64,000 bases of DNA from Mustelus asterias (taxonomy: Eukaryota): NCBI RefSeq assembly GCF_964213995.1, contig NC_135825.1, positions 12,710,001 through 12,774,000 of the forward strand, given 5' to 3'. The translations under genes and the position numbers were made by a program. Below the pieces are notes generated by a model. That model searched no databases. It was not told the DNA's origin and saw only the letters and a list, made by a program, of their open reading frames with translations. Below are positions 3,096 to 59,462 of this stretch, in pieces; position 1 is the first letter of the stretch; the number at the start of each line of letters is the position of its first letter.

Positions 3096-3151
3096 GCAAG
3101 AAAAAATTAGCACATACAGAGGAAGAATCTAACCCAGTCGATAGTGGTCTG
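3096..3151 (+). CDS. Gene A cytoplasmic exon (GKKKLAHTEEESNPVDSGL)
   Basis: cattcttag| acceptor and CTG|gtaaga donor. Phase 1 start matches the preceding exon. Lies in non-repetitive sequence. Confidence 0.7.
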
Positions 3152-10643: not shown

Positions 10644-10736
10644 CTTTTCAGAGACATCCATGGCCAAGACATCACATATGACATGGATGCGAGGATGTCC
10701 AGCTTTCAGAGAGAAGACTTTCCGCCTTATATTTAA
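10644..10736 (+). CDS. Gene A probable terminal coding exon (LFRDIHGQDITYDMDARMSSFQREDFPPYI*)
   Basis: ttgttcacttttcaaaag| acceptor, phase 0 compatible. Followed by unique AT-rich sequence with AATAAA at ~11042 and ~11648. An alternative acceptor at 10651 or a missed intervening exon cannot be excluded. Confidence 0.55.
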   Translation, partial: LFRDIHGQDITYDMDARMSSFQREDFPPYI

Positions 10737-11272
10737 GAAACATCAGCACAAACAAAGGAGCCTGTCTAATTAGGAAGCAGTGCTGTCCTTTCAGGACAAG
10801 TTCAATGGCTCTACACTTGGATTTCAATAACGCTTCTGTTCCCATCGCTTTCAATTTACATGCTACCCGAGGACAGTCCGAAGCCCCCACTTTAACCAAA
10901 GTTGCCATCTCTGCCAACAACTTCAGTTCCATAGCCTGCGTGGCATTTGAAGAAATTTAGCCATTATTGCTGGGGCTATTAACAGATAAATGCACAATAC
11001 CTTTGCATTACGACCCATTATCCATGACTGGTAACTCATCAAATAAATAGATTATTGTCTGTTCTGAAGTTTTCAGACAGGGAAATGTCACACAGACAAT
11101 TTGCATGTTCATCCACTGATATCACCAACAATAATTCTGATGTAAACTGTCTCCGACTGCCTCTGTAAATTCTTTTTATAAAACGATTGTATTACAAGAT
11201 TTTTTTTTTGTCCATCTGATCTGATCATTGATTATTTCGATTGATCAAACATCAATAACTTCCAGCTTTGAC

Positions 11273-16400: not shown

Positions 16401-17965
16401 TATACCGTGTCCCGCACCTTCAGGGTCACCACGCAGCAGCCAAGGACATTTACAGAGCGGGATTGTGACGCCATGGAGATCGTCTGCTGGATGGGCCGCA
16501 TGGAAAAGGCGTATCGGCGCACCGTATCAGGGTGAATGAAGCTCTCCGTACTCCCACTGTCAAACAAACAATGCTCACTGTGCCCGTTTACCTCAATGTC
16601 CATCATGGACGCGGCGAGACGATGAGGCTTTGTCTGATCCAGGGTCACTGATGCCACTGTTGAATCCTGCAGAAAGCTGTAGGGAGTTGCAGCTGTAGGA
16701 AATGGCGGCCCCTGCTGGTCACTCGTGGTAATTGTCGGCCAAGAGGACGGCCCCTGCGGTTTGCCGACGGCCGATGACGTCATCCAAGATGGCGGCCCCC
16801 GCGGGTCGCACACGGCCGGGGGCGTCCAAGATGGCGGCCCCCGCAGGTCGCACGCGGCCGGGGTCGTCCAAGATGGCTGCCCCCGTGGGTCACACGCGGG
16901 GGCGCTCGTGGATTTGGGAGCAGACTTACGGCAGGCCTTTGCGTAGTGCCCCTTCTTCCCACACGCGGAGCAGAACGACTCCCTCGCCGGGCAGCGTTGT
17001 CGGGGGTGCTTACCCAGGCCGCAGAAGTAACAGTTCGGGCCTCCAGAGGTTGCAGCTGCAGTCAGGTCACCGGAGAGGCGTGGGGCGGTGTAGGGCTGTG
17101 GTCCTCCCGGTAGCGACGGCCGCAGTGTCCAGGATGCGCCCACGTGGTCAGGTGAGTAGGATTCGAGGTATTGGGAGGTCACTTCTCGGGACACAGCCAG
17201 TTGCACAGTTTTCTTTAAGTCCAGCGCACCCTGTTCCAGCAGCCGTTGCCGGATGTAAGTAGTTCCGATGCCCGTGACAAAGGCATCCCGGACTAAGTCG
17301 TCTGTATATTGGGTGGCCATCACAGACCTACAGTTACAGTCCCGGGCAAGCCGACGCAACGCGCGCAGGAACTGGTCGACTGATTCACCTGGCTGCCGTC
17401 TGCGCGTAGCGAGGAGGTGCCTCGCATAGACTTCGTCAGGCCGTTTATTATACAGGCCTTTTAACAGTTCGATAGCGGCCGTATAATTTTCCGCGGATCG
17501 TAGCGTATACTACGTCGCTTACCCGGCCGCGGAGCACCCGTAGTTTGTCAGCATCTGTACTGATGGCAGTGGAGGCTTCGATGTAATCCTCGAAACATTG
17601 CAGCCAGTGGTCAAACGTGTTAGAGGCTCCGGCAGCTTCCGGGTCCAGATTCAGCCTTTCGGGTTTCAGTAGCTGCTCCATTCTTCAAAAAAAAAACTTG
17701 CCAATAAAATTGATGCGCTGTCAATCGAGCCGAGACTAGTTGTGAGCAAGACAAACAGCTTTTTATTGGCAAGAACTTGGAGCCATCCTTGTCGGAGATC
17801 TGGTCTGAACTGAGAGCAAGGGGGAGGAGCCACCGCCTTTATACCCAGACTAGGGGGAGGAGACTTGGGCGGAACCGACAGGGATGTGCCACATATACAG
17901 GTACTGAGAAATACTAACTACAGTGGTTAACCACTACAGATAACATATAACAGTGGTTTACCACA
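13473..17965 (-). mobile_element. Full-length Gypsy/Ty3 (Mag-like) LTR retrotransposon, decayed
   Basis: 255-bp LTRs at 13473-13727 and 17711-17965 (TG...CA on the minus strand, about 15 differences by eye). PPT at ~13728-13740, CACAC flanks, gag-PR-RT-RH-IN domain order. Confidence 0.95.
13784..17681 (-). pseudogene. Gypsy gag-pol with two CCHC knuckles, protease (LFDSGS), RT (YLDNV), RNase H (VESDAS) and integrase (HHCC, IHSDRG...VERENA); several frameshifts and a stop at 15753-15755
   Basis: ORF pieces 17448-17681, 16259-17359, 15753-15944, 13944-15752 and 13784-13993 are collinear on the minus strand. Confidence 0.93.
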
Positions 17966-25555: not shown

Positions 25556-25844
25556 GATTAGAGCTTCCAGTTTGTGGGCGTCATTCCGTTGTCTGCTCTG
25601 GCTGTTTGCACTGTTTCACTCACATGTAATGTGCATTTTGCAATAGGGCCAGTCTAGAGTCCAGAGCTTTGACGAAGGGTCATCCAGACTGGAGACGTTG
25701 GCTCTATTCTCTCTCCACAGATGCTGCCAGACCCACTGAGACTTTCCAGCATTTTCTGTTTTTGTTTCAGATTCCAGCATCCACAATATTTTGCTTTTAT
25801 TATAATATTTTAAATCTGATCTCTCTGATATTTGTAGACATATT

Positions 25845-30990: not shown

Positions 30991-33900
30991 AAAGCTCCCC
31001 TTACTTCAGGAAAGTTGAACAATATTACAGAGATGTGTATATGTTGGGGGCATGCCCCTTTAAGAGAATGGGTCAGGTGACCCAGGACACCAGCACTTGG
31101 GTGGACATTGCCAAGCCAGTCTTGTACCAGAAACCAACATGTTGATAAACAGTTCCAGTTAGTTTACTCCCACTTACCTCATGGTCTCTTATTAACCCAT
31201 TGGTAGACCACATATATAATAACTGGCAACGAGAATGGGATATGTTAGAGGTTATGGCGGGTGAATTTCACCATTTAGGCCAGAATATGCCCACACAACC
31301 TGCCAATATCTCTTGAAGTGAAACATTTTTGAAAGAAGGTCAATCAATTCATATTCAACAGTTCATTTGCTTAAATTAATTTCTTATTCATTTTCCAGGC
31401 CAACAGATGATGGATTAGATGGAAACATTGGCCAAAAACACATTTGAAGATTGGTCAGAAGATTGAATAAACCCTACATGAACATTCAGAATATTTCCAT
31501 TTGCTTTTTAGAAGTTACTTTCCTACGTTTCACTTTATTACAATTTGAAATGCTTTGCAAAGTTCGTAGAAATTGTGTGAACTGCATATTTTATAAAAGA
31601 ATGGGATGATAAATTTCTTTAATGTTGTTTATATTAAGGAGCAGTTTTTTTTGCAATGGTCATAAAGGATGGGACTCATGAAGGTAATCAGCTCCTCATT
31701 TTCAAGAACCAGTTGTAACTAGTTCAAAAAAATCACATTATGACACTGAAATATAAGCAAAGTAATCGGAGGAATTTTTCATAGAATCCTACAGTGTAGA
31801 AGGAGGCCATTCAGCCCATCGAGTCTGCACTGACCACAATCCCACCCAGGCCCCATCCCTGTAATCCCATGTATTTACCCTAGCTAGTCCCCCTGAGATG
31901 CAATTTAGCATGGCCAATCCACCTAAACCGCACACCTTTGGACTGTGGGAGCAAACCGGAGCACCCAGAGGAAACTCACGCAGACAATGTGCAAACTCCA
32001 CACAGTCACCTGAGGCTGGAATTGAACTCAGGCCCCTGGCGCTGTGAGGCAGCAGTGCTAACCACTGTGCCACCGTGCTGCCCCCATTTTCAGACAGGTG
32101 GGGGTTAAATCCACTAAAAGGTCGTGGAAGGTCAGCATTCCGCCATCATCTGGCCAACGTCCTGTGCAGGTTAGATGGTGAACAGGAAAACCCTCGGGCT
32201 GCTGTCAGATATGTCAGTTGAGTATTCAAATGGGCAAATTAATTGTTTGTTTTCATCAAGGATTCCAGGTTTAACAAACAGCAAGCTTATTTCCCAAAGC
32301 TCACACAGACTTCTAGTGTGAGCAGGGTGAGCACGCAGTGCTTCTTTGCTGAAACTGACAAACCGGGAAGCCTTTAACAGTAAAATTGGAGCTCTCTGAC
32401 CATGACAAGGTAAGAGGCTGCTGTTCACAACATGTCTTCGCTGGCACTGCTGTTGCCGTTTAGCAAATGGTTGCCAACTTCTTCGAAGTCATTTCACCCA
32501 TCCAGCACTTCACTCACCTCCAGACGTCATCAGCCTCCATCTCCGATGAAGGGCAAGGGAAGCCACAACATCAAGCTGACACCAGCCATGAGCTGCCTTC
32601 TCCTCAACCACCCAACAGTGCATAAGGCAGAAAGATGCACACAGAGATCCAGCTTCAAGGAGTAGAGAGCCCCACACAGGATCCACATGCGGAGAGTCAG
32701 CTTCTTGATTTGATTTGATTTATTATTGTCACATGTATTAACATACAATGAAAAGTATTGTTTACTGCTCGCTGTACAGGCAAAGCATACCATTCATGGA
32801 GAAGGAAACAAGACAGTGCAGAATGTAGTGTTACAGTCATAGCTAGGGTGTAGAGAAAAATCAACTTAATGCGAGGTAGGTCCATTCAAAAGTCTGACGG
32901 CAGCAGGGAAGAAGCTGTTTTTGAGTCGGTTGGTACGTGACCTCAGACTTTTTCTTTTCCTGATAGAAGAAGATGGAAGAGGGAATTCTAGGATGCGTGG
33001 GGTCCTTAATTTTGCTGGCTGCTTTGCCAAGGCAGCGGGAAGTGTAGACAGAGTCAATGGATGAGAGGCTGGTTCTCTGACAAGTGTGAGCAGCAGTGTC
33101 TCAAGTGGTTGTTGGCAAGTTGTCGCTCACATCTGCAGCCGACTGGAACAATACCTTCTTCATAGTGGGCCAAGAGGACTGTATTCCAGTGACCATAAAG
33201 GTGGCTGTCATTAAAGGGCAGACCCACCCTCGCCCACCCACCCAGAGGTTCTGTGCTTCCTTCCCCTGCAATGAGAGAACTTAGAGAGTTGTGAATGTTA
33301 TAAATGGTACAATAGGAGGGAAGGACACAAACTCATAGAGAGTGACAGTGAAGCCTGGGTGAAAGATGTCAATAGGCGTGTGAGTGTGAACTGTTGGCTG
33401 TTCTGATGGGATTGTGAGGTGCCTGGAGAAAGAGAGAGAGAGCAAATAATTGGGGCTGCAAAGGGTGTGACCCTAAGGATGGGCCGAATGGCCTGTGCAG
33501 GAGAATGTTGTAAAGCTCAGCATGTGGGACTTGACACTTGAAAATGATATGCTACTCGCCTTTCCAGCCCTCCTGAGTACCTGGATCTTGGTGCACTGTC
33601 TCGAGGCTGGAAGGACCACCCTGTTCTGGCTGACCTCCTTGGTTACTGCTGTCAATGCCTATTTGATTGTCCTCTTCCTCCCATTCTTGTGAGTTCTCAC
33701 CTTACTGCAGTTCCCTCAACTCTGTCAGCAACAGTGGCAGGCAACAATGAGGGAAACAGAGGGGAGGGAGATATTGGTGGAATATCTTCCCAGGTCTCTT
33801 CCCCAGTCCTTTGTTTGCTGCAGCCCCTCGATTCAGTTCAGCTATTCTGACCGCTGTTGTAGTCCTCTTAATTAAAATTCTTTTGACAGATTCAACGGGT

Positions 33901-37591: not shown

Positions 37592-37631
37592 ATGGAATTA
37601 ATTGCTCTCTTGATTCTAATATCTGTATCAA
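37592..37631 (+). CDS. Gene C exon 1, signal peptide (MELIALLILISVS)
   Basis: Kozak acaATGG, hydrophobic leader, A|gtaagt donor in phase 1 matching the IgV exon. Confidence 0.85.
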
Positions 37632-38649
37632 GTAAGTCTATTAAATTTTTTTAATTGATTTTTAATATTCATAGAAAGTATTTTTGGCAATCTGAGATGA
37701 TGAAGACCAGAAACAGCGACTGACCCAGGCACCAGTTGGTGTGAGCTAAAGATGAAGCACTTACAGTTTTGCAGACTGTGGCTGTTGTTGTGAAAGCCGT
37801 CTGCTGCTCCGGTATCTTCAGAAGATGGTGGCGTAGGGGTAACGTTTTGGGCTAGTAATCAGGCTAATGCTCTGGGGACTTGGGTTCAAATCCCACTGTC
37901 ACGGCTGGTGGAATGTAAAATTCAGTTAATTTATTGGGTGGCACAGTGCTTAGCACTGCTGCCTCAGCGCGCCGGGACCCAGGTTGATTTCCGGCCTCGG
38001 GTCGATGTCCGTGTGGAGTTTGCACATTCTCCCCATGTCTGCATGGGTTTCCTCCGGGTGCTCCAGTTTCCTCCCACATTCCAGAGATGTGTGGGTTACG
38101 CTTATTGGCCATGCTAAATTGACACTAGCATCAGGGGGATTAGCTTGGTAAATATGTGGGTTTACGGGAATAGGTCCTGGGTAGGATTATGGTCGGTGCA
38201 GACTCGATGGGCTGAATGGCCTCCTTCTGCACTGTGGGGATTCTATGACATTCTATGACAATCAGTCTTTGCTTCTCTCTGTGATTTGCCTCTGCATTCT
38301 GACTCTATCTGCCTCGTTGCAGCTCTGTCCTGATAAATTGCCCCTTAGTGTCAGCGTGTCTACCTCGGGTAAATGCATGGGGTTATGAGAATAGGGCCTG
38401 CGTGAGATTGCGGTTGGTGCAAACTCAATGGGGCAAAGGCCTCATTCTGCACTGTAGGATTCTATAATTATGATCATACCAGCTCCAAGCCAACAATTCT
38501 CCTCCTGTCGCTGTTCATGTAACCCTACAATCTCTCTGACAACTTTTCCCATTTACCTTGTTGTGAACCAATAACAGAGGTCGCGCCCTTAGCCAATTGT
38601 GTCATGAAGTGTTACAATGCTCTTTGTGTGTTGATAAATTGAGCTGTAA

Positions 38650-38836
38650 AGACTCGCATTCCAATCATTATTCATTCGTCTGTAAATTGAGTTTGTGTCT
38701 TTATATGCCCTGTTTGTTGTTTATGAGCAGATCTCCCACTCACCTGACGAAGGAGCAGCGCTCCGAAGGCTAGTGGCGTTTGCGACCAAATAAACCTGTT
38801 GAACTTTAACCTGGTGTTGTTAGACTCCTTACTGTG
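38650..38836 (+). mobile_element. Penelope-like terminus with hammerhead motif (38741-38775)
   Basis: CAC-CTGACGA-A-GGAGC agc GCTCC-GAAG-GCTA-GTG; absent from the duplicate. Confidence 0.65.
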
Positions 38837-39309
38837 ACAAATTGAGGAGCAGAGGATCTGACTAAACCCTCCTGTCTCCACAGAGCAAGAATCATTGCTA
38901 TCTTGCGAGAAAAGAGAAGAAAAACAGGGTGTCAAATCTATCTCAGATGTTCCTGTAAAGTGGGCATCCACAATCTGGCTCTGCCCATTTCCGATCCCTG
39001 TTGGAGGATGGCTTGGGAGGTTTGGTAGCTCAGTTATTGATTAAGTTAAATATTCTGAGAATGTGTCCCCAGGTTCTAGATCCCCAGCTGAAGGAATCAT
39101 CATTCCTGCATGTACTCTATCAAATCCTGTATGAAGTTCTGTTCACATGAGATCACCTCTAATTTTTCTAAACTCCACAGAAAAAAAGCTCAGTCTATTT
39201 AATCTTTCCACACTCCATCACACAAATTAGTTTGATGAACTTTCGTCGCATTTTCTCAATGATAAGTATATCTTTTCTTCTGTAAGGAGACTATAACTGC
39301 ACAATATAC

Positions 39310-39975
39310 TGGATAAAAGCAAATTATTGCGGATGCTGGAATCTGAAACCAAAAGAGGAAATGCAGAACAATCTCAGCAGTTCTGGCAGCATCTGTCAGG
39401 AGAGAAAAGAGCTGACGTTTCGAGTCCAGACGACCCTTTGTCAAAGCTAAAAGGCAGAGAAAGTGGGAGATATTTATAGTGCAGGGGGAGGGAATGAAAG
39501 ATGAGTCAGAGCCACAGAAACCAGGGGAAAGGCTGCTGATGGCTGTCCACAGAGAGAATAGAGGGTGTGAATGGCCAAACGGCAGAGAAGCTAAAATGAA
39601 GATGTTGGGGATGGGAGTGTGGTGGGGGGTGGGGGGGGGGGGGGGGGGGGGGTGGGGTCATCTTCCGGCTAGGCACTTTACATCCTTATGGCCCCAACAT
39701 CAAATTCAACAACTTTAGATGATTAGTTCTACTCCACCTCAACCCCACTGTTTTCATTCTATTTTATTTAATTTTTTACTGTTCTCTACCTATTATTTCT
39801 TTATTGTCTTTCTTCATTTTTCTTTCCACCCCCCACTCTCTCTGCCCCTACTTTGTCCCCCTTCCCTTACCTTTTCTCCCTCTTTGCTTCTCCTTTTCTA
39901 AATCTGACCTCTGTCCCATCCATTCCCCCCATCCCACCCCTCCCCCCACTCCCCAACATCTTTATTTTAGCTTCG
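39310..39975. mobile_element. Penelope-like element with inverted terminal segment
   Basis: 39310-39610 is the reverse complement of the sequence at 61425-61680; 39657-39975 is in the direct orientation. Confidence 0.7.
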
Positions 39976-41229
39976 CATTGAGACATCATTGCTGCAAAAC
40001 TCAAATCCTCTTGTCACCAAAGCCAAACTACCATTTGCCTCCTTAATTGTTTTCTCCATCGCCATGTTAACTTTCAGTGACCCACGAATAATTTCTCCTC
40101 ATCTCTGCCTTAAATGTCACGCCTCAGTTTCAAACAGTGACTCCCTCCTTCTAGATTCTCTGACAAGAGGAAACTTCCAATTCACGTTCTCCCTGTCATA
40201 GAGTCATAGAGGTTTACAGCACGGAAACAGGCCCTTCGGCCCAACTTGTCCATGCCACCCATTTTTTAAACCACTGAGCTAGTCCCAATTCCCATGTTTA
40301 GCCCACCTTACCCATGTAACTGCCTAAATGCTTTTTAAAAGACAAAATTGGACCCGCCTCTACTACTACCTCTGGCAGCTAGTTCCAGACATTCACCACC
40401 CTCTGTGTGAAACATTTGCCCCTCTGGACCCTTTTGTATCTCTCCCCTCTCACCTTAAACCTATGCCCTCTGGTTTTGGACTCCCGTACCTTTGGGAAAA
40501 GATGTTGACTGTCTAGCTGATTAATGCCCCTCATTATTTTATAGTCCTCTATAAGATCACCCTTAAGCCTCACTATTGTAAGACTGGAAGGAACATAACT
40601 GATCTCTAAACTTAAACCATAATTTTTAGTTAATTGCTAAACGCAAACAAATCAAATCACAGCCTTACTCTGAAGTCACTTTTCAGTTCCCCCCAGTTGA
40701 AACACTCAGAATCAGAATCCCTTACCGTCTCAGGTTATTCTCCGGCTCGCTCCCACTCTGTCCACTCCTGTAGTCAGGCCCACCACTTACCTGCCGGCTG
40801 TGACGACACGGTTCGATTTCTTTTTACCTTTCTCTTGCCCTCGAGTCTCCCTCGCAGGTCCATATCTTGGCTCCACCCAAAGACAAGTGCCTCTTTCCCC
40901 TCTGTGCCGAATTCCCACTCAGCTCCAAATTCCCGATACCCTCACTCTGGCTGAAATCTCACTCAGGCTGCAGTCTCTCTCCCACTGGCGTGCGCAGGCT
41001 CAGTGGTATCCGTAACGAGCAACATAAAATTCTGGCCTGTGTCTGTGCAGTGCTTTGAAGGCTCGTTGGTGAAATGAAGCAGCACAAGGAATTTGATCTT
41101 AACAATGTAATTTGATCCATCATTGCAAAGGAGATTGTTACAGCAATGAAATGGGACTGTTTACTCGGTTATTATTTAGTTGATTCAGATCGAGCTGTTA
41201 ATAACCTTTCCTCATTAACATCCCCATAG

Positions 41230-41559
41230 GTTCATGTCAATTAACTGGACCCAAGGAGGTTCATGGACAATCAGGAGGATCAGTCACTGTGAACTGTCAG
41301 TATGATCTGAAATACAAGGACCATGTTAAACAATGGTGCAAAGGTAATTATTACTACGTGCTTCAATGTTCTGTTGTGGTTTCTACTGAAAAGCCGGAAG
41401 AAGGAAGAATATCACTGACTGATAACAAAACACAAGGGATATTTTCAATTACCATGGATAACCTAATGAAGAGTGATGAAGGACAATATATCTGTGTGAT
41501 AGAAACACCAACATTTAAATATAATCACTGGATTTCTATTGATTTGAAAGTTTCTCAAG
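41230..41559 (+). CDS. Gene C exon 2, CD300/pIgR-type IgV domain (SCQLTGPKEVHGQSGGSVTVNCQY...KQWCKG...CSVVV...FSITMDNLMKSDEGQYIC...DLKVSQ)
   Basis: ccccatag| acceptor and G|gtaaga donor. Canonical V-set Cys/Trp/DxGxYxC plus the family-specific extra WC...C pair. Confidence 0.93.
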
Positions 41560-41989
41560 GTAAGATGCGAACGTATTTCTATTTAATTTATTCTGCCTCA
41601 ATTTAAACATTTTGAAATCAGAAATCCCACCTGTCCAATCAGCGGACCAGCTTAACTTTGGCAGTGTCACCAATTCCCATGGCCACTGCTGAGGCTACAG
41701 GGGGAAGGTGAAGGGACTCCACGCTGAGGCCCCATCAAAGAAAATATATATTTTTAAACCGAGCTGGGGCCTGGTGGGCAGGCCTCAGTAACCCGGGGCA
41801 TGCACACTCCATCAGGAACACCCTAGCACGGAGGGGATCATTACTGATTGGTGGGCATCTCCACGGGCCATGTGCAGCCACAGAGGAGGCCTCCCCTTCC
41901 AGTGAAACAACTGGGACAGCAGCCAGGGTTTATCCAGAAGTCTCAACATGTGTTAGCAGCTGCTTCCAATGCCAGAAAATTGCTGATTG

Positions 41990-42940
41990 CAGCAGTGGAC
42001 AATTAATTGGTTTAATTGCAGAGAGGCCGTGGCACAGTTGGAATCTCACTGGAGCAGGCAAACAAAGGGGGTCGTCCGACCTGACTGTCTGCCCCTCTAC
42101 TACGGTTACATTCATGGCTGGTTGTCCCTGGACAGGAGCATGCAGTGTCCACAGACACATCGAGGCCTTCCGTGCTGGTTGGGCACCGCAGGGACTGGGG
42201 TGCCTGATTGACCCCTTTAATCACATTCTAATTTGATGTTTTAAGTTTAATTTGTGTTTTGTTTTTGTTGAAGGCACTATCCCTCTAAGATGCTGCCCTT
42301 TTGACTTTCTCCCTCAATTCGTTTGATTTGGTTTCATTGGTTTATACAAAAGAGTTGCAATCACACTGGAGGTTCCCAGTGGAGGTCTCTCTATGGAGCA
42401 GTCCTCCCTTATCATTGGAGACCTGAGGTGGAGGGTGCCGCATGTCGCAGACCCACACAACCTTAGATTGCATCGGTTCATAGATTCCTAAGATGCTTGT
42501 CCTTTGTGTTGCCATGAGGACCATGCATATAAAGGATGCGTTAGACTGCATTTCCTTTTTAGTTATTTAAAATATCTTCTGTTACAGTTTTGTTTGCACT
42601 TCAGCCCCACGCTCCTGATCGACAGGCACCCGGTGCGGGGAGGGGCAGGGAAGGAGGAGGACCTCCTCATGAACCTGCTCCTCGGCCTGGCCAAACTTGC
42701 CCACAACAGGTCCAGGCAGCAAGCGACAAAGGGGGTCATCCGACCTGACTGCCGATTAACTGCGGCTACATTCACGGCTGGGTGTCCCTGGAGAGTGAGC
42801 ATGCAGTGATCAGGGGCACCATCAAGGCCTTCCATGCACATTGGGCACCGTGGGGGCTGGGGTGCCTCATTGACCCTTTAATTACATTTCAGTTTGATGT
42901 TTTAAGTTACATTTGTGTTTTGTTTTCGTTTAAGGCACTG
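41990..42940 (+). mobile_element. Tx1/L1-group non-LTR retrotransposon 3' fragments, two tandem pieces
   Basis: EDLLMNLLLGLAKLAHNRSRQQAT peptide; duplicated 3' UTR-like sequence. Confidence 0.55.
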
Positions 42941-42974
42941 CGGTGACACAGTGGTTAGCACTTTACTTTACATT

Positions 42975-43860
42975 ACCCCTTTGCCACATGTTCCCCTACC
43001 GAAACTCTGAAGACCTGACCGGGCTCATTCCCCAGTACTAGGTCCAGTATAGCCCCCTCTCCAGTCGGGCTATCTACATATTGTTCCAAAGAACCTTCCT
43101 GTACGCATTTTACAAATGCCTCCCCATTCAGACTCCCAGCCCTACGTGAATTCCAGTCTACACCAGGGAAATTGAAGTCTCCCACTACAACAACCCTATT
43201 TTTCCTGCACCTCTCCATTATCTCCTGGCATATCCGTTCTTCCACTTTTACTTTGTCCATCAGTTAATTTAAATCAATTAAATTGTTTTATACAAAAGAG
43301 TTAGAATCTCACCGAGCTGGCAATCCAGTGGCCCAGAATATTGCCCTGGAGATATGGGTTCAAATCAAACCACAGCAGCTGATACAATTTAAATTCAATT
43401 AACAAATGGTCCCTTTGGCCCATCGATTCTGTATCAACACGTGAGAAACATCTGACTTCCCACCTCATCCCATCTGCCAGCACTTGGTCCATAGCCCTGA
43501 ATGCTATGATGTGCCAAGTGCTCATCCAAGGTGCTTTCTGAAGGATGTGAGGCAACCCGCCTCTATCACCCTCCCAGGCAACACATTCCAGACTATCACC
43601 ACCCTCTGGGTAAGAGTTTTTCCTCACATTCCCCCAAACTTCCAGCCACTCACCCTGAACTTGTGTCCGCTCATGACTGACTCTTCAATAAAGGGGAACA
43701 GCTGCTCCATATCCACACTGTCCATGCCTCTCATAATCTTGTACACCTCGATCAGGTCACCCCTCAGTCTTCTCTGCTCCAAGGAAAACAACCCAAGCCT
43801 ATCCAACTTCTCTTCATAACGTAAATGTTCCATCCCAGGCAGCATCCTGGTGAATCTTCT
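42975..43860 (-). mobile_element. CR1-like LINE fragments (APE endonuclease VVGDFNFP...ILDLVL; RT C-terminus)
   Basis: ORFs 42973-43260 and 43624-43845. Confidence 0.85.
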
Positions 43861-44676
43861 GGTTGACTGCCACCCTTACATATTACCCCAAAACCACAGC
43901 AATGTGGTTTACTCCTAACTGCTCTCTGAAATGGCCCAGCAAGCCATTCAGTTCAAGGGCAATTAGGAATGGATAACAGAAAACTGACCTTGCCCCTGAC
44001 ACCCACGTTCTAAAAACCTGCCACCCTTTTTTTATTCATTCATTGTACATGGGCATCACTGGCTGGCCAGCATTTATTGCCCATCCCCAGTTGCCCGAGG
44101 GTAGTTGAGAGTCAACCACATTGCTGTGGCTCTGGAGCCACACATCATCAGACCAGGTAAGGACGGCAGATTTCCTTCCTTAAAAGACATGAGTGAACCA
44201 GGTGGGTTTTTCCGACAAGCGATAATGGTTTCATGATCATCAGTAGATTCTTAATTCCAGATATTTTTTATTGAATTCAAATTCCACCACCTGCCGTGGC
44301 AGGATTCGAACCCGGGTCCCCAGAGTATTTTTTTCTGTTACAGTTTTGTTTGCACTTCAGTCCCATGCTCCTGATGCACAGGCTCCCAGTGTGGAGAGGG
44401 GCAGGGATTCAGACCCGGGTCCGCAGAATATGGGCTGAGTTTCTGGATTAATGGTCCAGCGATAATACCATTAGGCCATCGCCTTCCCTAAACTGGAGGT
44501 AGATGGCTGTGCTGCTGAGGTTGCTGCCATTGCCAATGACATGTGGCATCAGGAATACATTGGGTGACCCTCCTGTCACCTCCCACTACCATTGCCCAAG
44601 TCTGCCTGCCTCCCAATCCACCATATACACAAAGTACTTTCAATAATAAAAAGTTCAACAAGTTCCTCTCTTTTAG

Positions 44677-44812
44677 GCCAACCACAAAGTTCAACAATAG
44701 GCCCGACCACCAGCGCAGCAGGAAATACCAAGGCTTCTGTCAACACAACAGGAAATACCAAGGCTTCTGTTACCACAATTCTCACCATTTCACCCATCAA
44801 TGACTTTCACAG
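44677..44812 (+). CDS. Gene C exon 3, Ser/Thr-rich mucin-like stalk with an internal 30-nt duplication
   Basis: ctctcttttag| acceptor and AG|gtaaac donor. Encodes GQPQSSTIGPTTSAAGNTKASVNTTGNTKASVTTILTISPINDFH, phases 1/2. Confidence 0.85.
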
Positions 44813-46435
44813 GTAAACCCTGAAAAAAATGGACTCAGTATATGTGTACATACTAGAATCATAGAATCCCTACAGTACAGAAGGAAGCCATTCTGCCCAT
44901 CGAGTCTGCACTGACAAAACTCCCACCCAGGACTTGTCCCCGTAACCCCACATATTTACCCTGACAATCACCCTGATACTAAGGAGCAACTTATCATGGC
45001 CAATCCATCTAACCCACACATCTTTGGACTGTGGGCGGAACCCAGAGCACCCAGAGGAAACCCACGCAGACACAGAGAGAATATGCAAACTCCACACAGA
45101 CAGTTCAATTCCATGGGCTGGAATTGATCCTTGTCCCTGGTGCTATGAGGCAGCAGTGCAAGCAACTGTGCCAACTTGCCACAAACATGCACGTGCCTTC
45201 TTGAACCACTGCTGTCCATGTGGCGCAGATACACCCACAATACTATGAGGGAGGGAGTTCCAGGATTTTGACCCAATGACCTTAAAGGTACAGCGATATA
45301 TTCCCAAGTCAGGATGGTGAACAGCTTGGAGGGCAACCTCCAGGTGGGGGTATTCCCATGAATCTACTGCTCTTGTCCTTCTAAACAGTGGAATTCATGA
45401 GATTGGAAGGTGCTGCCTAATGAGTTTTGTTGAGAACTTGCTGGGCATCTTGTAGATGGTACACACTGCTGCCTGCTCGTTGGGGGTGGAGGGAGGGAAC
45501 ATTTTTGGAAGGGGTGCTAATTATGCAAGCTGAATTGTCCTGGATGGTGTCAAGCTCCTTGAGTGTTCTTGGAGCTGCAATCATCTAGGCAAGTGGAGAT
45601 GATTCCATCACACTCCTCACTTGCACCTCGTCAATGATGGACAGGCTTTGAGGAGTCAGGAAGTGAGTTACTTGCTGCAGGATTGCCAGCCTCTGACCTG
45701 CTCATGTAGCCACAGGATTTATATGGCTTGTCCAATTCCGTTTCACATCAATGGTAACCATTCGAATATGGTTCGAATGATTGCCTGGCACTTGTGTGGC
45801 ATGAATGTTATTTGCCACTTGTCAGCCAAGCTGGATATTGTCCAGGTCTTGCTGCATTTGGACATGGACTGCTTCAGTATCTGAGGCATCATTCATTGAA
45901 CATTGTCCAATCATCAGTGAACATCCCCTCTTCTGACCTTATGATGGAAGGAAGGTCATTGATGAAGCAGCTGAAGAAAGTTGGGCCGAGGACACTCCCC
46001 TGAGGGACTCCTGCAGAGATGTCCTGGAGCTGAGATGATTAACCTCCAACAACCACAACACCTATGAACCAGGTATGACTCCAAACAACAGAGGGATTTC
46101 CCCCTGATTCCCATTGCCTCCAGTTTTGCTGAGGCTCCTTGATGCCACACTCGGTCAAATGTTGCCTTGATGTCAAAGGCAGTCACTCTCTCCTCACTCC
46201 CATTTGCAGTAAACCAGTCTGATTTTGCCAGTATTTATGGGCAGCTCAAAACCTCGTCGATATGAGGGCTTGTTGGAAAGTCACCTGATTCTTGCACAAT
46301 TCCCTGTGCATTCAGTATCACATCTTACAATGTCTCGGGAGGCTAAAAGGTTTCATGCATGAATGTGATTTAAATCCTCAACATGGGGTTTAAGCATTTT
46401 TCCACTGGATTAATTATAGTTTCTTGTTTAATCAG

Positions 46436-46551
46436 AGAGGATGAGCTGAAGAGTCTCGGTTTCTGGGCGATATTCCGCTGGCTGCTCTTTGCTGCTCTGC
46501 CTGTTTGCACCGTGTCAGTCGCATGTTACACACATTTTACAAATGACCCAG
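46436..46551 (+). CDS. Gene C exon 4, TM segment with Arg (EDELKSLGFWAIFRWLLFAALPVCTVSVACYTHFTNDP)
   Basis: ttgtttaatcag| acceptor and G|gtataa donor; phases 2/1 are consistent with neighbours. Confidence 0.85.
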
Positions 46552-48848
46552 GTATAATCCTTTAAATCTCACGATTCTAATATTCAAAATTATTTCATTC
46601 AGTTAAAAAGCTCAAGCATTTTGAAAGTTGCCTAAAAGAAGGCAGTTGATGCAAAACACTCGCTGCACTTGTAACTGACGAATTACAGAACATAATGACA
46701 TCATTAAATTATGGGCTGAATTAGTGATTTCCAGTTGCTCCCTATGATCAGTATACATTGTCGACAAGTGCTATACATTGTGACGTGAGTGTGCCTTTAA
46801 GAAATGGCTGCCGGCTGCTGCTTTAGTTTAGAAGGTGTTCGGACATCAGATTGAAAAGCAATGTTTCTCCCTCCCCTGGTATTGTAAATTCTGCTGGCTA
46901 ACTGGAAGCAGGTCTCCTTGCCTTCCTGGAGTGAGAATTCTGTCTCTTGTAGCGGTTCATTGGCTGAAAGCGAGAAGCCAGCAGTGACACTCTCTCTATC
47001 TCGAGGGCTGTTGGAATTTACAAGGGAAAAGTTTCATTCTCCAATCAAAGGACTAAGGTACAGCATCAAGTGAGCATTCGCATTTTCCGTGCTAAACCTG
47101 TAGCAGCTGTATGTTTATAGGCAAGATCGTTTGGTTGTTAAGGTTTATACAATATCATGGTTGCTTTTCTTTTCTTCTTTGTAATTGGTAAACGTTATTG
47201 CTGTATCTTAACTTTGTTTGATAAAAGCTCCCGAGTGGGTCTGTTGAATCAAACCTGGAGTGAAACATATCATGCTCACCCTAGGCAAACTAACTCCTTG
47301 CTGACATGGACATCAAAGCTTGTATGGGTCTCCAGGCCATCATGCACACCATCGTGATAGGGAGGATGGAGGTGGTGTTGCCAGCCACGTACATGATGAA
47401 CAGATTCATGGGCAGCTGTTGGAGCTCATAATTTTCTCCGTTTCTTTTGTAACAGGCCTGTAGCTACAAGAAATCCAGATTTGACCGACGGAGATCGTTC
47501 AAAGATGGCAAAAGACAGTACCGGACCAAGTTAGATTCCCAAGCTAGAAACATGGTCTTCCACCCTGTAGTCAACAAATAGGAGTTTAACAAAGGTGTCG
47601 TTGTTATCCAGGTGTTCCAGGGTTCAGTGTGGGGCCAGGAAGGGGGCATCTGCTGTGGACCTGTTGTGACGATAGGTGAATTGGAATAGATCCAGGCAAT
47701 CTGGGAGGGGGTTTTGAGCCCACGCTCTCTGAAACGCCGACAGAATCAAAATTTCTGATTTTCACTGGTGACGTAATCAGTCTCACGCTCATAATGGGCC
47801 AGGGGGTAGTGCCAGGGGCAGGACCTATGGGGAGCACCACGTATAGTGGTGGGGGTGGAGCAAATGTGGGAATGGTGGGGGTGCCGTGAAGGTCGGGGGA
47901 AAAGTGAGATGCTGCCAATGACTGAGGGGGATGCCGCTGATGTCTGTTTGGTGGTGGGGGGGCCCCGGAGTGGTGGGGAGAGGGTGGAGATTATTTTTTG
48001 AAAGGGCACCCCAATCTCAGTGCAGCCGATTAGCCAATTTTGCCGGCTTGTTTAGGCTCCACCCCTCAACATGACTTTGTTTCAAACACTGGGCCTGGGC
48101 CCTCCCCCCCCCCCCCTCCCCCCGCCCTATCCCACCACCCCCTCTCTAAAGCCTCTGGGCCCCAGTGTTTGGGACAGCCTGCACCCTCCCCTGATCCCTG
48201 GCTGGAGGTACCGATACAGCCCTCCTGTCCATTCCAACAGCACTAAACCCCTCCCTGAAAGTTCATCACATACCGGAACGTGACATTATACTTCATCAAT
48301 GGGAAGAGCAAGGAACATTTCCGATATAGCGTTTCAAGTGCCGATACGGTGAAACTTTGTGCAACAATCTCAGGCTTTGTCATCCGTTAACTTCTGTGGT
48401 TTCCTGCAAGAGACAGAATGTCTGCCAATCACACCAGGGACATAGCAATGAACAGGAAGTTCAAAAGCACCAAAGAGGGAACTGCTCCAACAGTAAACCA
48501 CAATCTAAAATTAATGCCTGCATTCAAATACAGACCTGAAATGGGGGATAAGAGGGAGCTCCAACACCACTCCTGGATCAGACATGGTTGCGTTCTACAG
48601 GCTGGCACTCAAGATGTGCCCCAGTGCCATTGGCGCTTCATGATGAATAGAAAGCTCCAGTGACCCCAGGAGAGTTGAACACTATCAGAGTTAGAGGTTA
48701 TGAGAGACAAATCCCACCACTCGGACTAGAATATCCCCACTCACCATCTCACCTGCGCATTGTTAGCCAGTGAAACACGATTGAAATGTCAAATCATTCA
48801 TTTGCTACAGATCAGTTGCTAAAATTCACTCCTTATTCAGTTCTCCAG

Positions 48849-49039
48849 GCCAACAAGTGATGGGTTCTGTCGAAACAGCAACCACAGTACAAATGGATCC
48901 GAGCTTCATTCAAAGACTGGTCAGAGGATTTGTTAAACTTGAGCTGAATGTCCAGAATATTTGCTTTGAGAAGTTACTTTTCAATATTATGGAATTTTAT
49001 ACTTTGAAATACTTTATAAAATTCCCAGAGATTGTGTGA
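48849..49039 (+). CDS. Gene C probable terminal exon (GQQVMGSVETATTVQ...FPEIV*); full CDS 813 nt / 270 aa if this exon is used
   Basis: ttctccag| acceptor conserved in relic B; ATTAAA downstream (~49055, ~49092). An alternative weak acceptor at ~48408 would give a short tail. Confidence 0.55.
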
Positions 49040-50257
49040 AATACTTCATTTCTTATTAAAGAAGATGATAAGCTTTGTTAATGTTGTTTATATTAAAGAG
49101 TAGTTTGTTTCTGTAATTGTCGCAAATGATTCACCAAAATAAGCAACTCATAGCTTGCATGAAGTAGCAACATGGCGACAGATTGGCACAGTGGTTAGCA
49201 CTGCTGCCTCACAGTGCCAGGGACCCGGGTTCACTTGCTGGCCTCGGGTCACTGACTGTGTGGAGTTTGCACATTCTCCCCGTGTCTGCATGGGTTTCCT
49301 CCGGGTGCTCTGGTTTCCTCCCACAGTCCAGAGATGTGCGGATTAGGTGCATGAACCATGCTAAATCGCCTGTTAGTGTCCCAAGATGAGCGGAATTTGC
49401 ACAATAAATGTGTGGGGTAAGCCCAGGTAAGAGTCAGTGCAGACTTGATGGGCTGAATATGATTCGAACAAATAGGTAAAAAGATGTCATGTTGGGATTT
49501 TGAAATATAACAAATTACTTGGGGAAATGTTTGGACAAGTTAAAGTTAAAAGTTTATCTATTAGTCACAAGTCGGCTTACATTAACACTGCAATGAAGTT
49601 ACTGTGAAAGTCCCCTGGTTGCCACACTCCAGGTCAATGCACCCAACCAGCACGTCTTTTAGAATGTGGGAGGAAACAGGAGCACCCGGAGGAAACCCAC
49701 GCAGACATGGGGAGAACGTGCAAACTCCACACAGACAGTGGCCCAAGCCAGGAGTCGAACACGGGTCCCTGGCGCTGTGAGGCAGCAGTGCTAATCGCCA
49801 TGCCACCGTGCTGCCCCTGTGCAGAGGAGACGGACACAGATATCCAGCTCCAAGGAGGTGAGAGACCAACACAGGGTCCACAGGCACACGCTTTCTCCAC
49901 ACACACCAGCAGCAGCGTCTCAGGGCATTTCAGGTTGCTGCTGACATCTGCAGCTTGGCAGAACATGACCTTCTGCACACTGGGCGAGGCGGCTGTGTGC
50001 CAGTGACGGGCAAAGCTCTCAAGTTGCTGGTGGAGGGCGGGTGGAGCTGGAACATTCTTCCCAGCTCGAGAGCGTGCAGAGAGATTTCTGCTGTTTTAAG
50101 ACATGCATTCAGACATCAGCCTGGATTGTGTTCCTCAAATGTTCGGCCTCCAATATAACAGGCATGAAACGTTATTGCAGCTATCGAAATGATGTAGTGG
50201 AAACCAACTCAAATGATTCACCTCTTTCATTGGCTCAATCCTGGCCAACACAGGGAA

Positions 50258-52137: not shown

Positions 52138-52245
52138 GCAAAGATAGCGCGGCTAACGTGCAATACCTGCACAGAGAGAATTCACCCACCAGAAACACTC
52201 AGTACAATGGAGTTAATTGTTCTCTTGATTCTGATGTCCATAATA
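52138..52245 (+). pseudogene. Orphan copy D of the 5'UTR/leader exon (MELIVLLILMST*), lacking its splice donor
   Basis: Matches 37525-37625; fused directly to the Gypsy relic. Confidence 0.8.
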
Positions 52246-53053: not shown

Positions 53054-53603
53054 AGCTGTGATTGTGGGGAGCGTGTGGCTAGGGGGAATTCGGAGGGCTG
53101 TGATTGTGGGGAGCGTGTGGCTGGGGGAATTCGGAGGGCTGTGATTGTGGGGAGCGTGTGGCTAGGGGAATTGGGGGGGCTGTGATTGTGGGGAGCGTGT
53201 GGCTGGGGGAATTGGGGGAGCTGTGATTGTGGGGAGCGTGTGGCTGGGGGAATTGGGGGGCTGTGATTGTGGGGAGCGTGTGGCTGGGGGAATTGGGGGG
53301 CTGTGATTGTGGGGAGCGTGTGGCTGGGGTAATTGGGGGGGCTGTGATTGTGGGGAGCGTGTGGCTGGGGTAATTGGGGGGCTGTGATTGTGGGGAGTGT
53401 GTGGCTGGGGTAATTGGGGGGGCTATGATTGTGGGGAGTGTGTGGCTGGGGTAATTGGGGGGGCTATGATTGTGGGGAGCATGTGGCTGGGGGATTTTGG
53501 GGGGCTGTGATTGTGGGGAGCGTGCAGCTGGGGGAATTCGGGGGGCTGTGATAGTGGGGAGCGTGTGGCTGGGGGAATTGGGGGATGGGGGGTGTGATTG
53601 TGG
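53054..53603. repeat. G-rich minisatellite, ~40-bp unit GGGCTGTGATTGTGGGGAGCGTGTGGCTGGGGGAATT, ~14 copies
   Basis: Seen directly. Confidence 0.95.
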
Positions 53604-53863
53604 ATGTGCTAGGAGCAAGCAGCATTGCATAACCTTCACATCTGTTCCTCTCCACCTCCCCATNNNNNNNNNNNNNNNNNNNNNNNNNNNNNNNNNNNNN
53701 NNNNNNNNNNNNNNNNNNNNNNNNNNNNNNNNNNNNNNNNNNNNNNNNNNNNNNNNNNNNNNNNNNNNNNNNNNNNNNNNNNNNNNNNNNNNNNNNNNNN
53801 NNNNNNNNNNNNNNNNNNNNNNNNNNNNNNNNNNNNNNNNNNNNNNNNNNNNNNNNNNNNNNN

Positions 53864-54734
53864 CCAGGCCGCGAGCGCAGATGTCTGTGGCATCTCCCAA
53901 TCTGCCGTGCACACCAGTGTGAGGCAGGTGACTGAAGCCCTGTATGCCCGGGCTGGGCAGTACATCAAATTTAACCTGGACCAGGCCCATCAGGAAGCCT
54001 GGGCTGCGGGGTTTGCTGCCATTGCCGGGATGTCGAACGAGCAGTGGGCGATCGACTGCTCACACGTTGCCCTCAAGGCTCCCCTACAGAATCCACAAAG
54101 ATTTGTTAATAGGGAGGCGTTCCACTCCTTGAATGTTCAGCTAGTGTGTGACCATAACATGACCCCCATCATGCACGTCTACACCAGACATCCAGGCAGC
54201 GGGCATGACAGCTTCATTGTCAGGAGCTCGGACATCCTGGAGGCATTTGAGGAGGAGCCCAGGCTGTGGGGGTGGCTCGTGGGTGATATGGGTTACCCGC
54301 TTCGGACATGGCTGATGATGCCTGTGCGGAGGCCTGTGTCTGAGGTGGAGACCCGCTACAATGAGGCCCATGTAGCCACCCACGCGACAGTGGAAAGGTG
54401 CATTGGGCTCCTCAAGGTGCGATTCCGGTGCCTGGACTGATATGGAGGGAACCTCCAGTGCGGCCCCCTGATCTCCTGCCACATAGTGGTCGTGCGCTGT
54501 GCCTTGCACAATCTGGCTTTGCAGCGAGGTGACCTCTTGGAGGAGGAGGGGGACGTGGAGGATGACCAGCCGGCCGTCACTCGAGAGGATGACCAGCAGG
54601 AGGGGGAGGAAAAGGAGGAAGAGGAGGAAGAGCACTCCCTGGAACACCAGCCAGGCGGTGGAGGGCTAACAGCTCAAATGAGGCATGAGAGGGCAGCAAG
54701 GGAGGCCCCGATAACCAGGCGGTTCAGTCGCTAG
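53864..54734 (+). pseudogene. Harbinger DDE transposase (HARBI1-like family), 5' part in the gap, premature stop at 54438-54440
   Basis: AIDCSHV, HSLNVQLVCD, PGSGHDS, LVGDMGYP, VERCIGLLKVRFRCL and CALHN motifs. Confidence 0.92.
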
Positions 54735-55329
54735 GGGATGGTGTCTGTGGGTTCCATTCTCCCCTCCCCCCTCCCCCCAATGCCTTCTATATACCCTGCA
54801 CATTGTCACACCAGAATGGTGGGCCTGGGTACGCTGTGTTAGCAAGTTTTTTGGCAGGCAGGAGGGTGATGACGACTCACTAAGCACCATTATGATGATG
54901 CCCTGGTGCAAACTAGTCTGACTCCTACCTGAGGTCCTACGCTGGCACGTGGGCCCATGTCTGTGTTGTGAGTAAGGGATCTGAAACCCCCATACAGGGC
55001 CCTGGGGCGGGTGGGTTGGGGGACGGGAGGGAATCGCTCGTGGGGTCTGTGAAACCAATGGCTTCCTTTTCTCAGTGACACAGCATTGAGGGGCCTCCCC
55101 AACGGACAGCGTGAGGCATCCGTCAGGTGATCATCAATGGGGCAGGAATCATAATCGAGACAGATTAGTCACAGGTGGGTGTTGAAAAAACATTTATTTA
55201 CAATAAAGGTGTTTAGATCAGCTGTTGTAACATAAAAACTTGTGAATGGAAAATGTTAAGGTGCTTACATATCTTACTAACTAATGCAGCCCTTCACCCG
55301 TGCCATCTCAGTGCAACTACAACTTCCTA

Positions 55330-58070
55330 ACATTACGTGGCTTACCACTACGCCTCAGTGTCTCTCCAGAATGTACATCAGAGGTGGAGGGCGCCAACTG
55401 CCTACCTCGCCCTGTGGCCTGTGATGCACGTGGCGGACGTCCTCTGGAGGCCCTGGACCTTGAGGGCCCTGACCTGCTTCCAAGTGTCTGGGATATTTCA
55501 TGACACCCTCTTCATCTCGCTGCCCCTGAGATGCCCCCGTGTCAGGAAGGGGGGAGTCAGAACCTGTTGCCAAAGCCACAGTCTCCTGCATGGACGACGC
55601 TGGCATGGGCTCGAGCCCTTCCTCCTCCTTTGGGGTTCCTGTTGGCCCCTGGGTCACTCCATGGGACAGTGGTGCTTCTGCAGTGAGCTCCAGAAGCTCA
55701 GGCGTCACCTAGCACTGCCAGTCCTGGAGGACCACCTGCGTCCTACCCATGGTGGTCAACCCCTCTGCGATGGCCACTTGAGTCTGGGGCCATCTCTCAA
55801 TGGCCATAGCGAGTGCCCTCTGAGACTGGGCCATGCTCTGCAAGCCCTCAGCCGTGGCCCTCTGAGACTGGGCCACGTAATCAAGAGTTGATGTCATAGC
55901 GCACTGTGTCTCAGTGCTGTCCCACTGGGTCTCCTGCAAACTCTCGAGCCTCTCAGACATGGGCCACAGAATCTCGAGAAGCCTGTTCGGTCCCTCCGCT
56001 GTGGCCTGCTGTGACTCGGCCATCGCTTGGAGCCTGCCACCCATGGTGAGGATCCCCTGCCTCAGGCTTTCCACTGCAGGCGCCACCTTGCAGTGTTGGC
56101 CTGGGAAGCACGCAAGACAGGCAATAGCTGGTCCACCTGAAAGTTTTGGGACTCCTCCCAGCAGCCTCGTAGTCGGTCCAGTGTGGCCGTCAGCCCCTCC
56201 TGCATTCCCTGGCTCTGTTGCTGCATCTCCAGCAGCTGAGGGAGAAGTGATCTCAGAGGCCCAGCATGTCGCCTGGGGCCAGTTGAGCCCTCACCTCCGG
56301 CAGGCCCACACATGCCAGAGGCCTCAGAAATTTCCTCCTCCATCCGATGTACATCAGCAGGTGTGTCATGCTCACCAGAGAGTGAGCCAGAAGCCTCAAC
56401 ACTAACTGGATCCACCGATGTGTCAGTATCTGGGACGGTGAGTTGTGAGGTGGCAGCTGACGGATAGACGGTGCCACCCTCAGAGGTCCCTTCACCCAGA
56501 TCCTCCGAGCACTTGTCCGAGCTGTCTTGATCAGCATGGGCAGGAGCTGCAGCAGGGGCTTGCGGTCCGAAGGCCGTGGGGTGTTCGGATCTGTCCCTGC
56601 AACACAGGACACAAGGTTAAGTGCAAGGGAGGAGAGGAATCCGGGATGCCAAACACATGATTCACATTTCTCCATTGAACATGGAACAAAACACCAACAA
56701 ATTATATCACATGAACAGGCCCTTCGGCTCTCCAAGCCTGTAGGGACCAGGCGGCCCATCTGATTTGCTCGCCCCTACCCTTCCGGGGGCCATATTGGGG
56801 AGGTGATGGCCTAGTGGTATTATCACTAGACTATTAATCCAAAAACTCTGCTAATGTTCTGGGGACCTGGGTTCGAATCCCGCCACGGCAGATGGTGGAA
56901 TCTAAATTCAATTTTATGGGCGGCACGGTAGCACAGTGGTTAGCACTGCTGCTTCACAGCTCCAGGGACCTGGGTTCGATTCCCGGCTTGGGTCACTGTC
57001 TGTGTGGAGTTTGCACATTCTCCTCGTGTCTGCGTGGGTTTCCTCCGGGTGCTCCGGTTTCCTCCCACAGTCCAAAGATGTGCGGGTTAGGTTGATTGGC
57101 CATGCTAAACATTGCCCTTAGTGTCCTGAGATGCGTAGGTTAGAGGGATTAGTGGATAAATATGTAGGGATATGAGAGTAGGGCCTGGGTGGGATTGTGG
57201 TCGGTGCAGACTCGATGGGCCGAATGGCCTCTTTCTGTACTGTAGGGTTTCTATGATTTCTATGATTTCTATGATCCCTCTATTCCCATCCCATTCACGG
57301 AGCTGTAGAGATGCCCCTTAAAGGCCACTATCGTATCTGCATCCACCACCTTCTTCAGCAGTGAGTTCCAGGCACCCACTACTCTCTCTGTGCAAATAAA
57401 CCCCGTACATCTCCTTTAAACCTTGCCCCTCGCAGCCGAAACTCATGCCCCTGAGAAGCTGCCTCAAAGTGAGTGGAGGAATGACAGATGCTCACGTCTG
57501 GACAGCAGCCCGACCATGCAGTCGCTGGCAGCCCACAGCTCCCCTTCTCTGGAGAGCTCCAGTGCCTGCTCCTCAAAGTGGGTGAAGACCCGGAGGTCTG
57601 GCTCACCAGCCCCTCTCTGCGCCCTCTCACGGGTGTTATGGTCGGTCTTCTTCTGTGGAGACAGAAGGAGCCATGAAAGAAATGATAGCATGACTCCAGC
57701 CCTTAGAGGGCCAACACAGCGGGGCTCATTGGGGAGGAAGGAAGGAGGTGTATGGGGATCAGGAGCTGGAAGCGTGCAGGGTGTTGGGAATGGGAGGATC
57801 TGGGGGAGATATGAGGGAACATGCAAAATGGGGTTCAGCACTCACCCTTGCTGCACGGATGAGGTCATTGAGTTTCTTCTGGCACTATTTCGTGGTTCGG
57901 GGGGGCCAGTGCCCTGGCACTGACTGAGGCGGCGACTTCCTCCCAGGCCGCATTTCCAACAGCCCCCCTGAGTCTGCGTCCTCCTGCGGGGACGAGGGTG
58001 TTCTGCCTCACCTCTGCTGCATCCAGCAGCCTCCCAGGTCACCCTCAGATAATCGGGAAGCTCATTTTCT
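55330..58070 (-). pseudogene. Harbinger Myb/SANT-like DNA-binding gene, spliced and frameshifted
   Basis: Minus-strand translation of ~57845-58040 gives LLDAAEVRQNTL...AWEEVAASVSA...CQKKLNDLIRAAR|gtgag. The next exon (ctccacag|KKTDHNTRER...EEQALEL) is at ~57650. Coiled-coil pieces lie at 55355-56600. Confidence 0.8.
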
Positions 58071-59422: not shown

Positions 59423-59462
59423 ATGGAGTTAATCGCTCTCTTGATTCTAATGTCTGTATCAA
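59423..59462 (+). CDS. Gene E exon 1, signal peptide (MELIALLILMSVS); rest presumably beyond the window
   Basis: Intact ATG and A|gtaagt donor; paralog of 37592-37631. Confidence 0.8.

Follow-up and report, generated by a model that had tools for sequence, protein, structure and literature searches.

A single-V, CD300-like receptor gene with a transmembrane arginine and a linked inhibitory-type twin in the shark Mustelus asterias

The stretch analyzed here (the window; 64,000 nt of Mustelus asterias NC_135825.1, on whose scale all positions are given) carries a receptor gene with one immunoglobulin (Ig) V domain, a stalk and a transmembrane (TM) segment that contains an arginine. Downstream of it lies the leader exon of a second, closely similar receptor gene, called the twin here, whose V, stalk, TM and tail exons are beyond the window (approximately 66630–80700 on the window scale). 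The features are collected in Table 1. Exons 1–4 of the first gene join in phase (1-1-2-1) with GT-AG at all junctions and yield 207 stop-free codons; the exon 1 peptide is the same as the start of the NCBI protein XP_078054028.1 (P0005). From the stalk to the last exon, the TM exon is the sole open AG..GT candidate of 90–150 nt that runs from phase 2 to phase 1. On the + strand of the window there are 19 such stretches; the two hydrophobic ones are TM exons of receptors. The choice of the TM exon is not due to chance, and the gene is real and intact. A previous reading of the letters (the sequence-only reading) had described a complete five-exon gene in which leader, V, Ser/Thr stalk and Arg-bearing TM exons (FWAIFRWLLF) join in phase. 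Its first four exons stand as described, including the composition of the stalk and the arginine, which is Arg183. Its fifth exon, placed behind an acceptor at 48849, does not.

Table 1. Features of the receptor gene and its twin (window positions)
Feature	Position	Strand	Remarks
Exon 1 (coding portion, 13 codons + 1 nt): start codon with signal peptide	37592-37631	+	donor GT at 37632
Exon 2: Ig V-set domain	41230-41559	+	Cys36-Cys102 and extra pair Cys50/Cys60 (Cx9C)
Exon 3: Ser/Thr-rich stalk	44677-44812	+	36% Ser + Thr in 45 residues; phase 1 to 2
Exon 4: TM exon, 116 nt	46436-46551	+	Arg183 (WxxxRW motif), Pro191; absent from the NCBI model
Exon 5: last exon	48841-49079	+	ATTAAA at 49055; contigs end at 49079
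Leader exon of the inhibitory-type twin (XP_078054027.1, P0007)	59423-59462	+	
Tract 97.0% identical to the twin, gap-free: V exon and flanking intron	40650-42976	+	youngest putative conversion tract

The position of the last exon was settled by comparison with paralogs. Five paralogs of the TM exon lie 48–200 kb downstream, each with a copy of the last exon. In all five, the acceptor aligned to 48841 is followed by a stop after six codons. The same acceptor was chosen in the NCBI model, and two contigs start at 48838 and 48839, which is 48841 plus shared junction letters. With the TM exon included, exon 5 adds six codons (stop ending at 48860) and the protein has 213 residues. It ends in VLQANK, with a tail of 13 residues behind Tyr200. 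The annotated relatives have similar ends (horn shark VFQASK, catshark VLQASK, a Mustelus paralog APQVSK). The exceptions are the catshark models P0013 and P0021, which read the other frame, and P0024 and P0025, which extend beyond the usual stop. Because acceptor and stop are kept in 5/5 paralogs and the relatives end alike, we take the membrane form to be 213 residues long. Most of the tail proposed in the sequence-only reading is therefore 3′ untranslated region (UTR), with the ATTAAA.

Two other ends were rejected. The 270-residue product proposed earlier needs an AG at 48848–48849. Its long frame is not conserved, closing after 23 codons in the paralogs, and the contigs start at the 48841 boundary; the product has 213 or 234 residues instead. 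An acceptor at 47456 (209 residues) sits among high-copy repeats in the depth table and has no paralog support.

The gene is already in NCBI as CMRF35-like molecule 5 of Mustelus asterias (XP_078054028.1, 234 residues). This model is exons 1, 2, 3 and 5 letter for letter, with the TM exon left out. Since the TM exon is 116 nt long, skipping it changes the frame of the last exon, which then reads 66 codons to a stop ending at 49039. Both TM-bearing and TM-less isoforms are annotated in the horn shark (P0012, P0017). The annotated gene was known, and what the annotation missed is the membrane form of predicted activating type. The public gene model is corrected here by the TM exon that it lacks.

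The V exon matches the Pfam V-set (PF07686) with 58.5 bits (cut-off 26; E 8.5e-16). Besides the canonical Cys36 and Cys102, it has a second pair in the C–C′ region, as the sequence-only reading had noted. The pattern used here for CD300/pIgR/TREM-like receptors was Cx6–9C in this region; the spacing Cx9C is named for CD300LG in the available part of 10.1101/2022.04.21.489081. The best single-domain sequence match in the PDB, CLM-1/CD300lf (64.8 bits), falls inside the CD300/pIgR family, and pIgR scores higher only when its domains are summed. An AlphaFold model of the domain, built from an alignment of 11 sequences, has a predicted local distance difference test score (pLDDT) of 90. With this model, nine of the ten best Foldseek matches were mouse CD300lf and one was human IREM-1/CD300f (TM-score 0.85–0.90). 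The identity to solved CD300 domains is 28–34%. A search of the ESM Atlas gave CMRF35-like and pIgR-like clusters only. One V exon lies between leader and stalk; pIgR is defined by at least two tandem V domains. On its sequence features and predicted fold the gene belongs to the CD300/pIgR/TREM-like group, consistent with the earlier assignment. We call it CD300-like as a description and not as a claim of orthology.

The pocket Trp that precedes the F-strand Cys in CD300 receptors is probably replaced by Ile in this V domain. Because of this replacement, phospholipid binding should not be assumed. In CD300lf, the CC′ and FG loops are described as forming the ligand cleft; phospholipid is bound there in a pocket, with a metal ion placed between CC′ and the complementarity-determining region 3 (CDR3) loop (PMC6166816, in part). 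Among the relatives, the extra cysteine pair is lost in P0011, P0012, P0021, P0063 and P0030 (WRxG...SS for WCxG...C). In the horn shark, it is lost in the activating twin and kept in the inhibitory twin.

The most hydrophobic stretch of 19 residues is 181–199; Arg183 comes third in it, within the upper (N-terminal) half of the helix. In 11 aligned rows that were chosen for this TM, the Arg and both flanking Trp residues (WxxxRW) are invariant. The Arg is kept in 14/14 proteins found with the TM profile and in all 24 proteins (of 169) that score at least 8 bits, including those of skate, rays and two sturgeons; this last count is partly circular, as the profile itself weights the Arg. None of these 24 proteins has a motif resembling the immunoreceptor tyrosine-based inhibition motif (ITIM) within 80 residues behind the WxxxRW TM. 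The 13-residue tail of the 213-residue form is also without ITIM, immunoreceptor tyrosine-based activation motif (ITAM) or other tyrosine motif.

An Arg near the N-terminal end of the TM couples CD89, NKp46 and NKp30 to FcR-gamma or zeta; adaptors with DxxxT take a central Lys, and NKG2D–DAP10 uses a central Arg (PMC13107469, available part). By this rule, the position of Arg183 in the upper half fits FcR-gamma/zeta rather than DAP12. The TM helix has no Lys, whereas DAP12 partners of the TREM2 and NKp44 type carry one at mid-helix. Candidate adaptors are present. A genome search gave an FcR-gamma-like TM exon (E 4e-11; L046, C275) and a CD3-zeta-like TM exon (E 1e-9; L045, C17), each carrying the Asp; both were identified from TM exons and are two of the five listed matches above the cut-off. 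A 2014 survey reported that no FcR-gamma was found in sharks (PMC4016189, in part). The search for DAP10 (PF07213) returned ten weak matches, the best with E 0.29 and an internal stop. The conserved Arg, the short tail and the adaptor exons support a receptor of activating type, as first proposed, with FcR-gamma/zeta as its predicted partner. The sequence-only reading had listed FcR-gamma, DAP12 and DAP10 as adaptors; the position of the Arg points to FcR-gamma/zeta rather than to DAP12.

The twin lies 25.4 kb downstream. It went unnoticed in the sequence-only reading, although its leader exon is in the window. Its V domain is 89% identical (12 substitutions), its TM is uncharged, and its tail carries the tyrosine motifs VTYSAV (a classical ITIM) and VEYSAI (non-classical). 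The two genes have what defines paired receptors by sequence: linkage, near-identical ectodomains, and predicted TM and tail types of opposite kind.

At the DNA level, the similarity to the twin runs from the promoter through the stalk and breaks off at 44855, shortly after the stalk exon. Nothing in the 3′ part of the twin matches the TM and last exons. The similarity falls into seven collinear blocks of 82–97% identity, which are uneven (chi-square p 1e-23). Identity peaks around the V exon, at 97.0% over 2327 bp, and around the leader, at 94.6%. A tree of 21 V domains from five elasmobranch species (P0021 left out) shows the activating and inhibitory V domains as sisters in 4/5 species, with identities of 89–98% within and 55–73% between species. 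The support values of these sister groups are 98/98 for Mustelus, 99/97 for horn shark, 95/83 for white shark, and 86/87 and 99/95 for stingray. The label activating/inhibitory changes seven times on the tree, no fewer than in shuffles, and a single activating clade is rejected (approximately unbiased test, p 0.0003). Rays and sharks have both tail types in common, which makes these types much older than the similarity of the V domains. For this reason, recurrent gene conversion that re-matched the V domains of the pair is the simplest reading of these comparisons. Literature searches on CD300 or MDIR genes of sharks and fish, and on gene conversion, listed no article about the pair; the work of Cannon from 2006 and 2010, or papers outside the collection searched, may cover it.

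We consider it fairly probable that the gene encodes a single-V CD300-like receptor which is the activating half of a pair, is predicted to dock on FcR-gamma or CD3-zeta, and has an ectodomain maintained by conversion. The 213-residue membrane form would be made from a transcript that includes the TM exon. Arg183 would dock on the Asp–Asp of an FcR-gamma (or CD3-zeta) dimer, and the adaptor would relay an ITAM signal. Repeated conversion would keep the ectodomain similar to that of the inhibitory twin, and both may bind a common ligand. Skipping of the TM exon would give the frame-shifted 234-residue form, presumably secreted, which probably co-exists with the membrane form.

Several observations count against this reading. 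Contigs of four of the 13 listed runs, all without an RNA record, were compared with positions 46300–49180. The runs X12 and X13 are of small size and show the behavior of spliced sequence, and lack of cover in them was not taken as absence. Two contigs match the last exon without difference from their starts to 49079. One of the two, record 24 of X12 (depth 2.8), is the only contig that extends upstream from this last exon; its 564 additional letters do not fall on the TM exon, and this length is compatible with exons 1–3 plus approximately 60 nt of UTR. In two runs from the same organism, no contig lies on this gene's own TM exon. A single paralog contig accounts for all depth over that exon in X12; it shows 14 differences and continues from the same donor into a copy of the last exon. 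The NCBI model skips the exon as well. A TM-less transcript of this gene is indicated, and a TM-containing transcript was seen for a paralog only. These runs may themselves have been the source of the annotation.

The same data bear on an explanation in which the gene is mainly a secreted decoy or opsonin here: the TM exon would usually be skipped and be starting to decay, and the product would compete with the twin for ligand without a signal. The sole NCBI model and the one informative contig, both without the TM exon, fit this idea, as do the unique Pro191, a TM-exon acceptor slightly poorer in pyrimidines than those of the paralogs (0.65 versus 0.70–0.75) and the TM-less isoform annotated in the horn shark too. 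However, the TM exon retains its splice sites, open frame, Arg and conserved tail frame, and against the paralogs 4–6 of its 29 codons show silent and 6–9 replacement changes. The tail read on skipping is unconserved (66 codons here, 23 in the paralogs). The contig has little depth, rarer forms are lost from contigs, and its run may have fed the annotation. A TM proline also occurs in skate and sturgeon relatives, at another position. We regard a mainly secreted product as unlikely.

The helix itself gives further grounds for caution. Its hydrophobicity is modest (KD19 of 1.9), Pro191 lies mid-helix and is unique among the 11 aligned rows, and the helix could begin after Arg183, leaving the Arg at the surface. 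The membrane form might then be made with the Arg at the outer surface and no ITAM adaptor, or with another partner (DAP10/DAP12, or itself as a dimer through TM cysteines), and serve for adhesion or capture without signaling. By sequence, residues 184–203 alone could span the membrane. Against this stand the invariance of the Arg and its Trp neighbors in 11/11 rows, their retention as far as sturgeon, and the association of the motif with short tails that have no tyrosine motifs. CD89 also uses an Arg near the top of the helix for its adaptor (PMC13107469, available part). Such a non-signaling receptor seems improbable to us, and we retain the adaptor-coupled one.

The case for conversion has its own weak points. 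In the catshark S. torazame, the V domains are not sisters and are only 63% identical; the presumed activating model of this species has no TM. The relatives are automatic gene models, some of them fused (P0002), and a single fused model supplies both members of the white-shark pair; the activating or inhibitory assignment therefore rests partly on gene order. Between the twins, the proportions of differing nonsynonymous (pN) and synonymous (pS) sites are 0.051 and 0.041, and pN/pS (1.26) is not different from 1 (Fisher p 1.0). Compared with the flanking intron, pN gives p 0.044. Seven of the 12 differing residues belong to the CC′ and FG loops or adjoin them; this clustering has p 0.07 with strict limits and p 0.004 with limits that were widened afterwards. 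These values are weak and no more than suggestive of positive selection between the twins.

Alternatively, the twins could resemble each other because each lineage underwent its own recent duplications or exon shuffling. The cluster described below is large and in turnover (60 V exons in 0.93 Mb, with relic exons in the window), and the tree alone is unable to separate duplication from conversion. One duplication, however, predicts even divergence; the blocks vary from 82 to 97% and are most alike around exons, which disfavors it. The age of the two tail types relative to the V similarity points the same way. We think lineage-wise duplication is not a likely account, and conversion within an old pair remains our preference.

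The gene is near the end of a receptor cluster: 60 of the 61 V-exon matches fall in C25:11.88–12.81 Mb (0.93 Mb). The cluster holds members with one, two and three domains, of both activating and inhibitory types. Five near-identical Arg-TM exons (L040–L044, C25:12.80–12.96 Mb) occur in both orientations and are parts of receptors that have several domains and clearly dissimilar V domains. One TM/tail module is here combined with various ectodomains.

Remnants of other receptors are found in the window. A relic of Arg type consists of a frameshifted TM-exon remnant at 25560–25650 (78% over 51 nt) and a copy of the last exon and 3′ UTR at 31245–31670 (67%) whose acceptor AG is missing; a V exon preceding this relic was not found. 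An orphan copy of the leader exon with upstream DNA (52140–52238, 88%) lies between the twins and has no splice donor. Upstream, TM and tail exons at 197–306, approximately 3095–3139 and 10647–10739 belong to a receptor that has two V domains, encoded 9–11 kb before the window, and a TM without charge. Its last exon stops earlier than in Heptranchias. The stretches 13944–17509 (minus strand) and approximately 53600–56600 hold two long open reading frames, presumably gag-like and shortened pol-like parts of a long terminal repeat retrotransposon, and pieces that resemble a Harbinger-type DNA transposon.

A broader reading is possible, and we advance it tentatively: an ancient elasmobranch activating/inhibitory CD300-like pair, its ligand-binding parts re-homogenized lineage by lineage through conversion in parallel to CD300a/c, would have an activating member that signals through FcR-gamma and also acts as a secreted decoy by skipping of its TM exon. 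Conversion-maintained pairs, judging from those of mammals, usually point to a pathogen that exploits the inhibitory member; the pair could therefore serve as a handle for finding the shark ligand. It also offers a simple one-domain pair for testing Arg-to-FcR-gamma signaling and paired-receptor logic in cartilaginous fish. The FcR-gamma chain of this reading is the one once reported as missing from sharks (PMC4016189, in part).

The sequence-only reading had called this family little characterized in cartilaginous fish. The skate MDIRs correct that statement, since they are already described as a multigene family whose receptors, some activating and others inhibitory, have CD300/TREM/pIgR-like domains (PMC3031540, available part), a description that the shark genes share. 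Concerted evolution of a single-domain pair is not among the features given in that part of the source, and no skate MDIR sequence was among the named matches of our protein searches. MDIR1 is said to have a positively charged TM residue. The MDIRs of the clearnose skate were reportedly first described by Cannon et al. in 2006 (PMID 16738934).

Human CD300a and CD300c are similar in having one V domain, a Ser/Thr-rich stalk, and an ITIM-tailed member beside a short-tailed one with a charged TM; gene conversion keeps their ectodomains alike (PMC12447643, in part). The charge differs: CD300c has a TM glutamate, whereas the shark gene has an arginine in WxxxRW. With CD89 (Fc-alpha-RI), NKp46 and NKp30, the gene shares a short tail and an Arg high in the TM helix. 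These receptors have other ectodomains and loci, and their pairing is demonstrated, whereas that of the shark gene is predicted. XP_078054028.1 is the same gene, identical in exons 1, 2, 3 and 5, in a model without the TM exon. Receptors of this design are already familiar from mammals and the skate MDIRs, and the shark gene is a further member.

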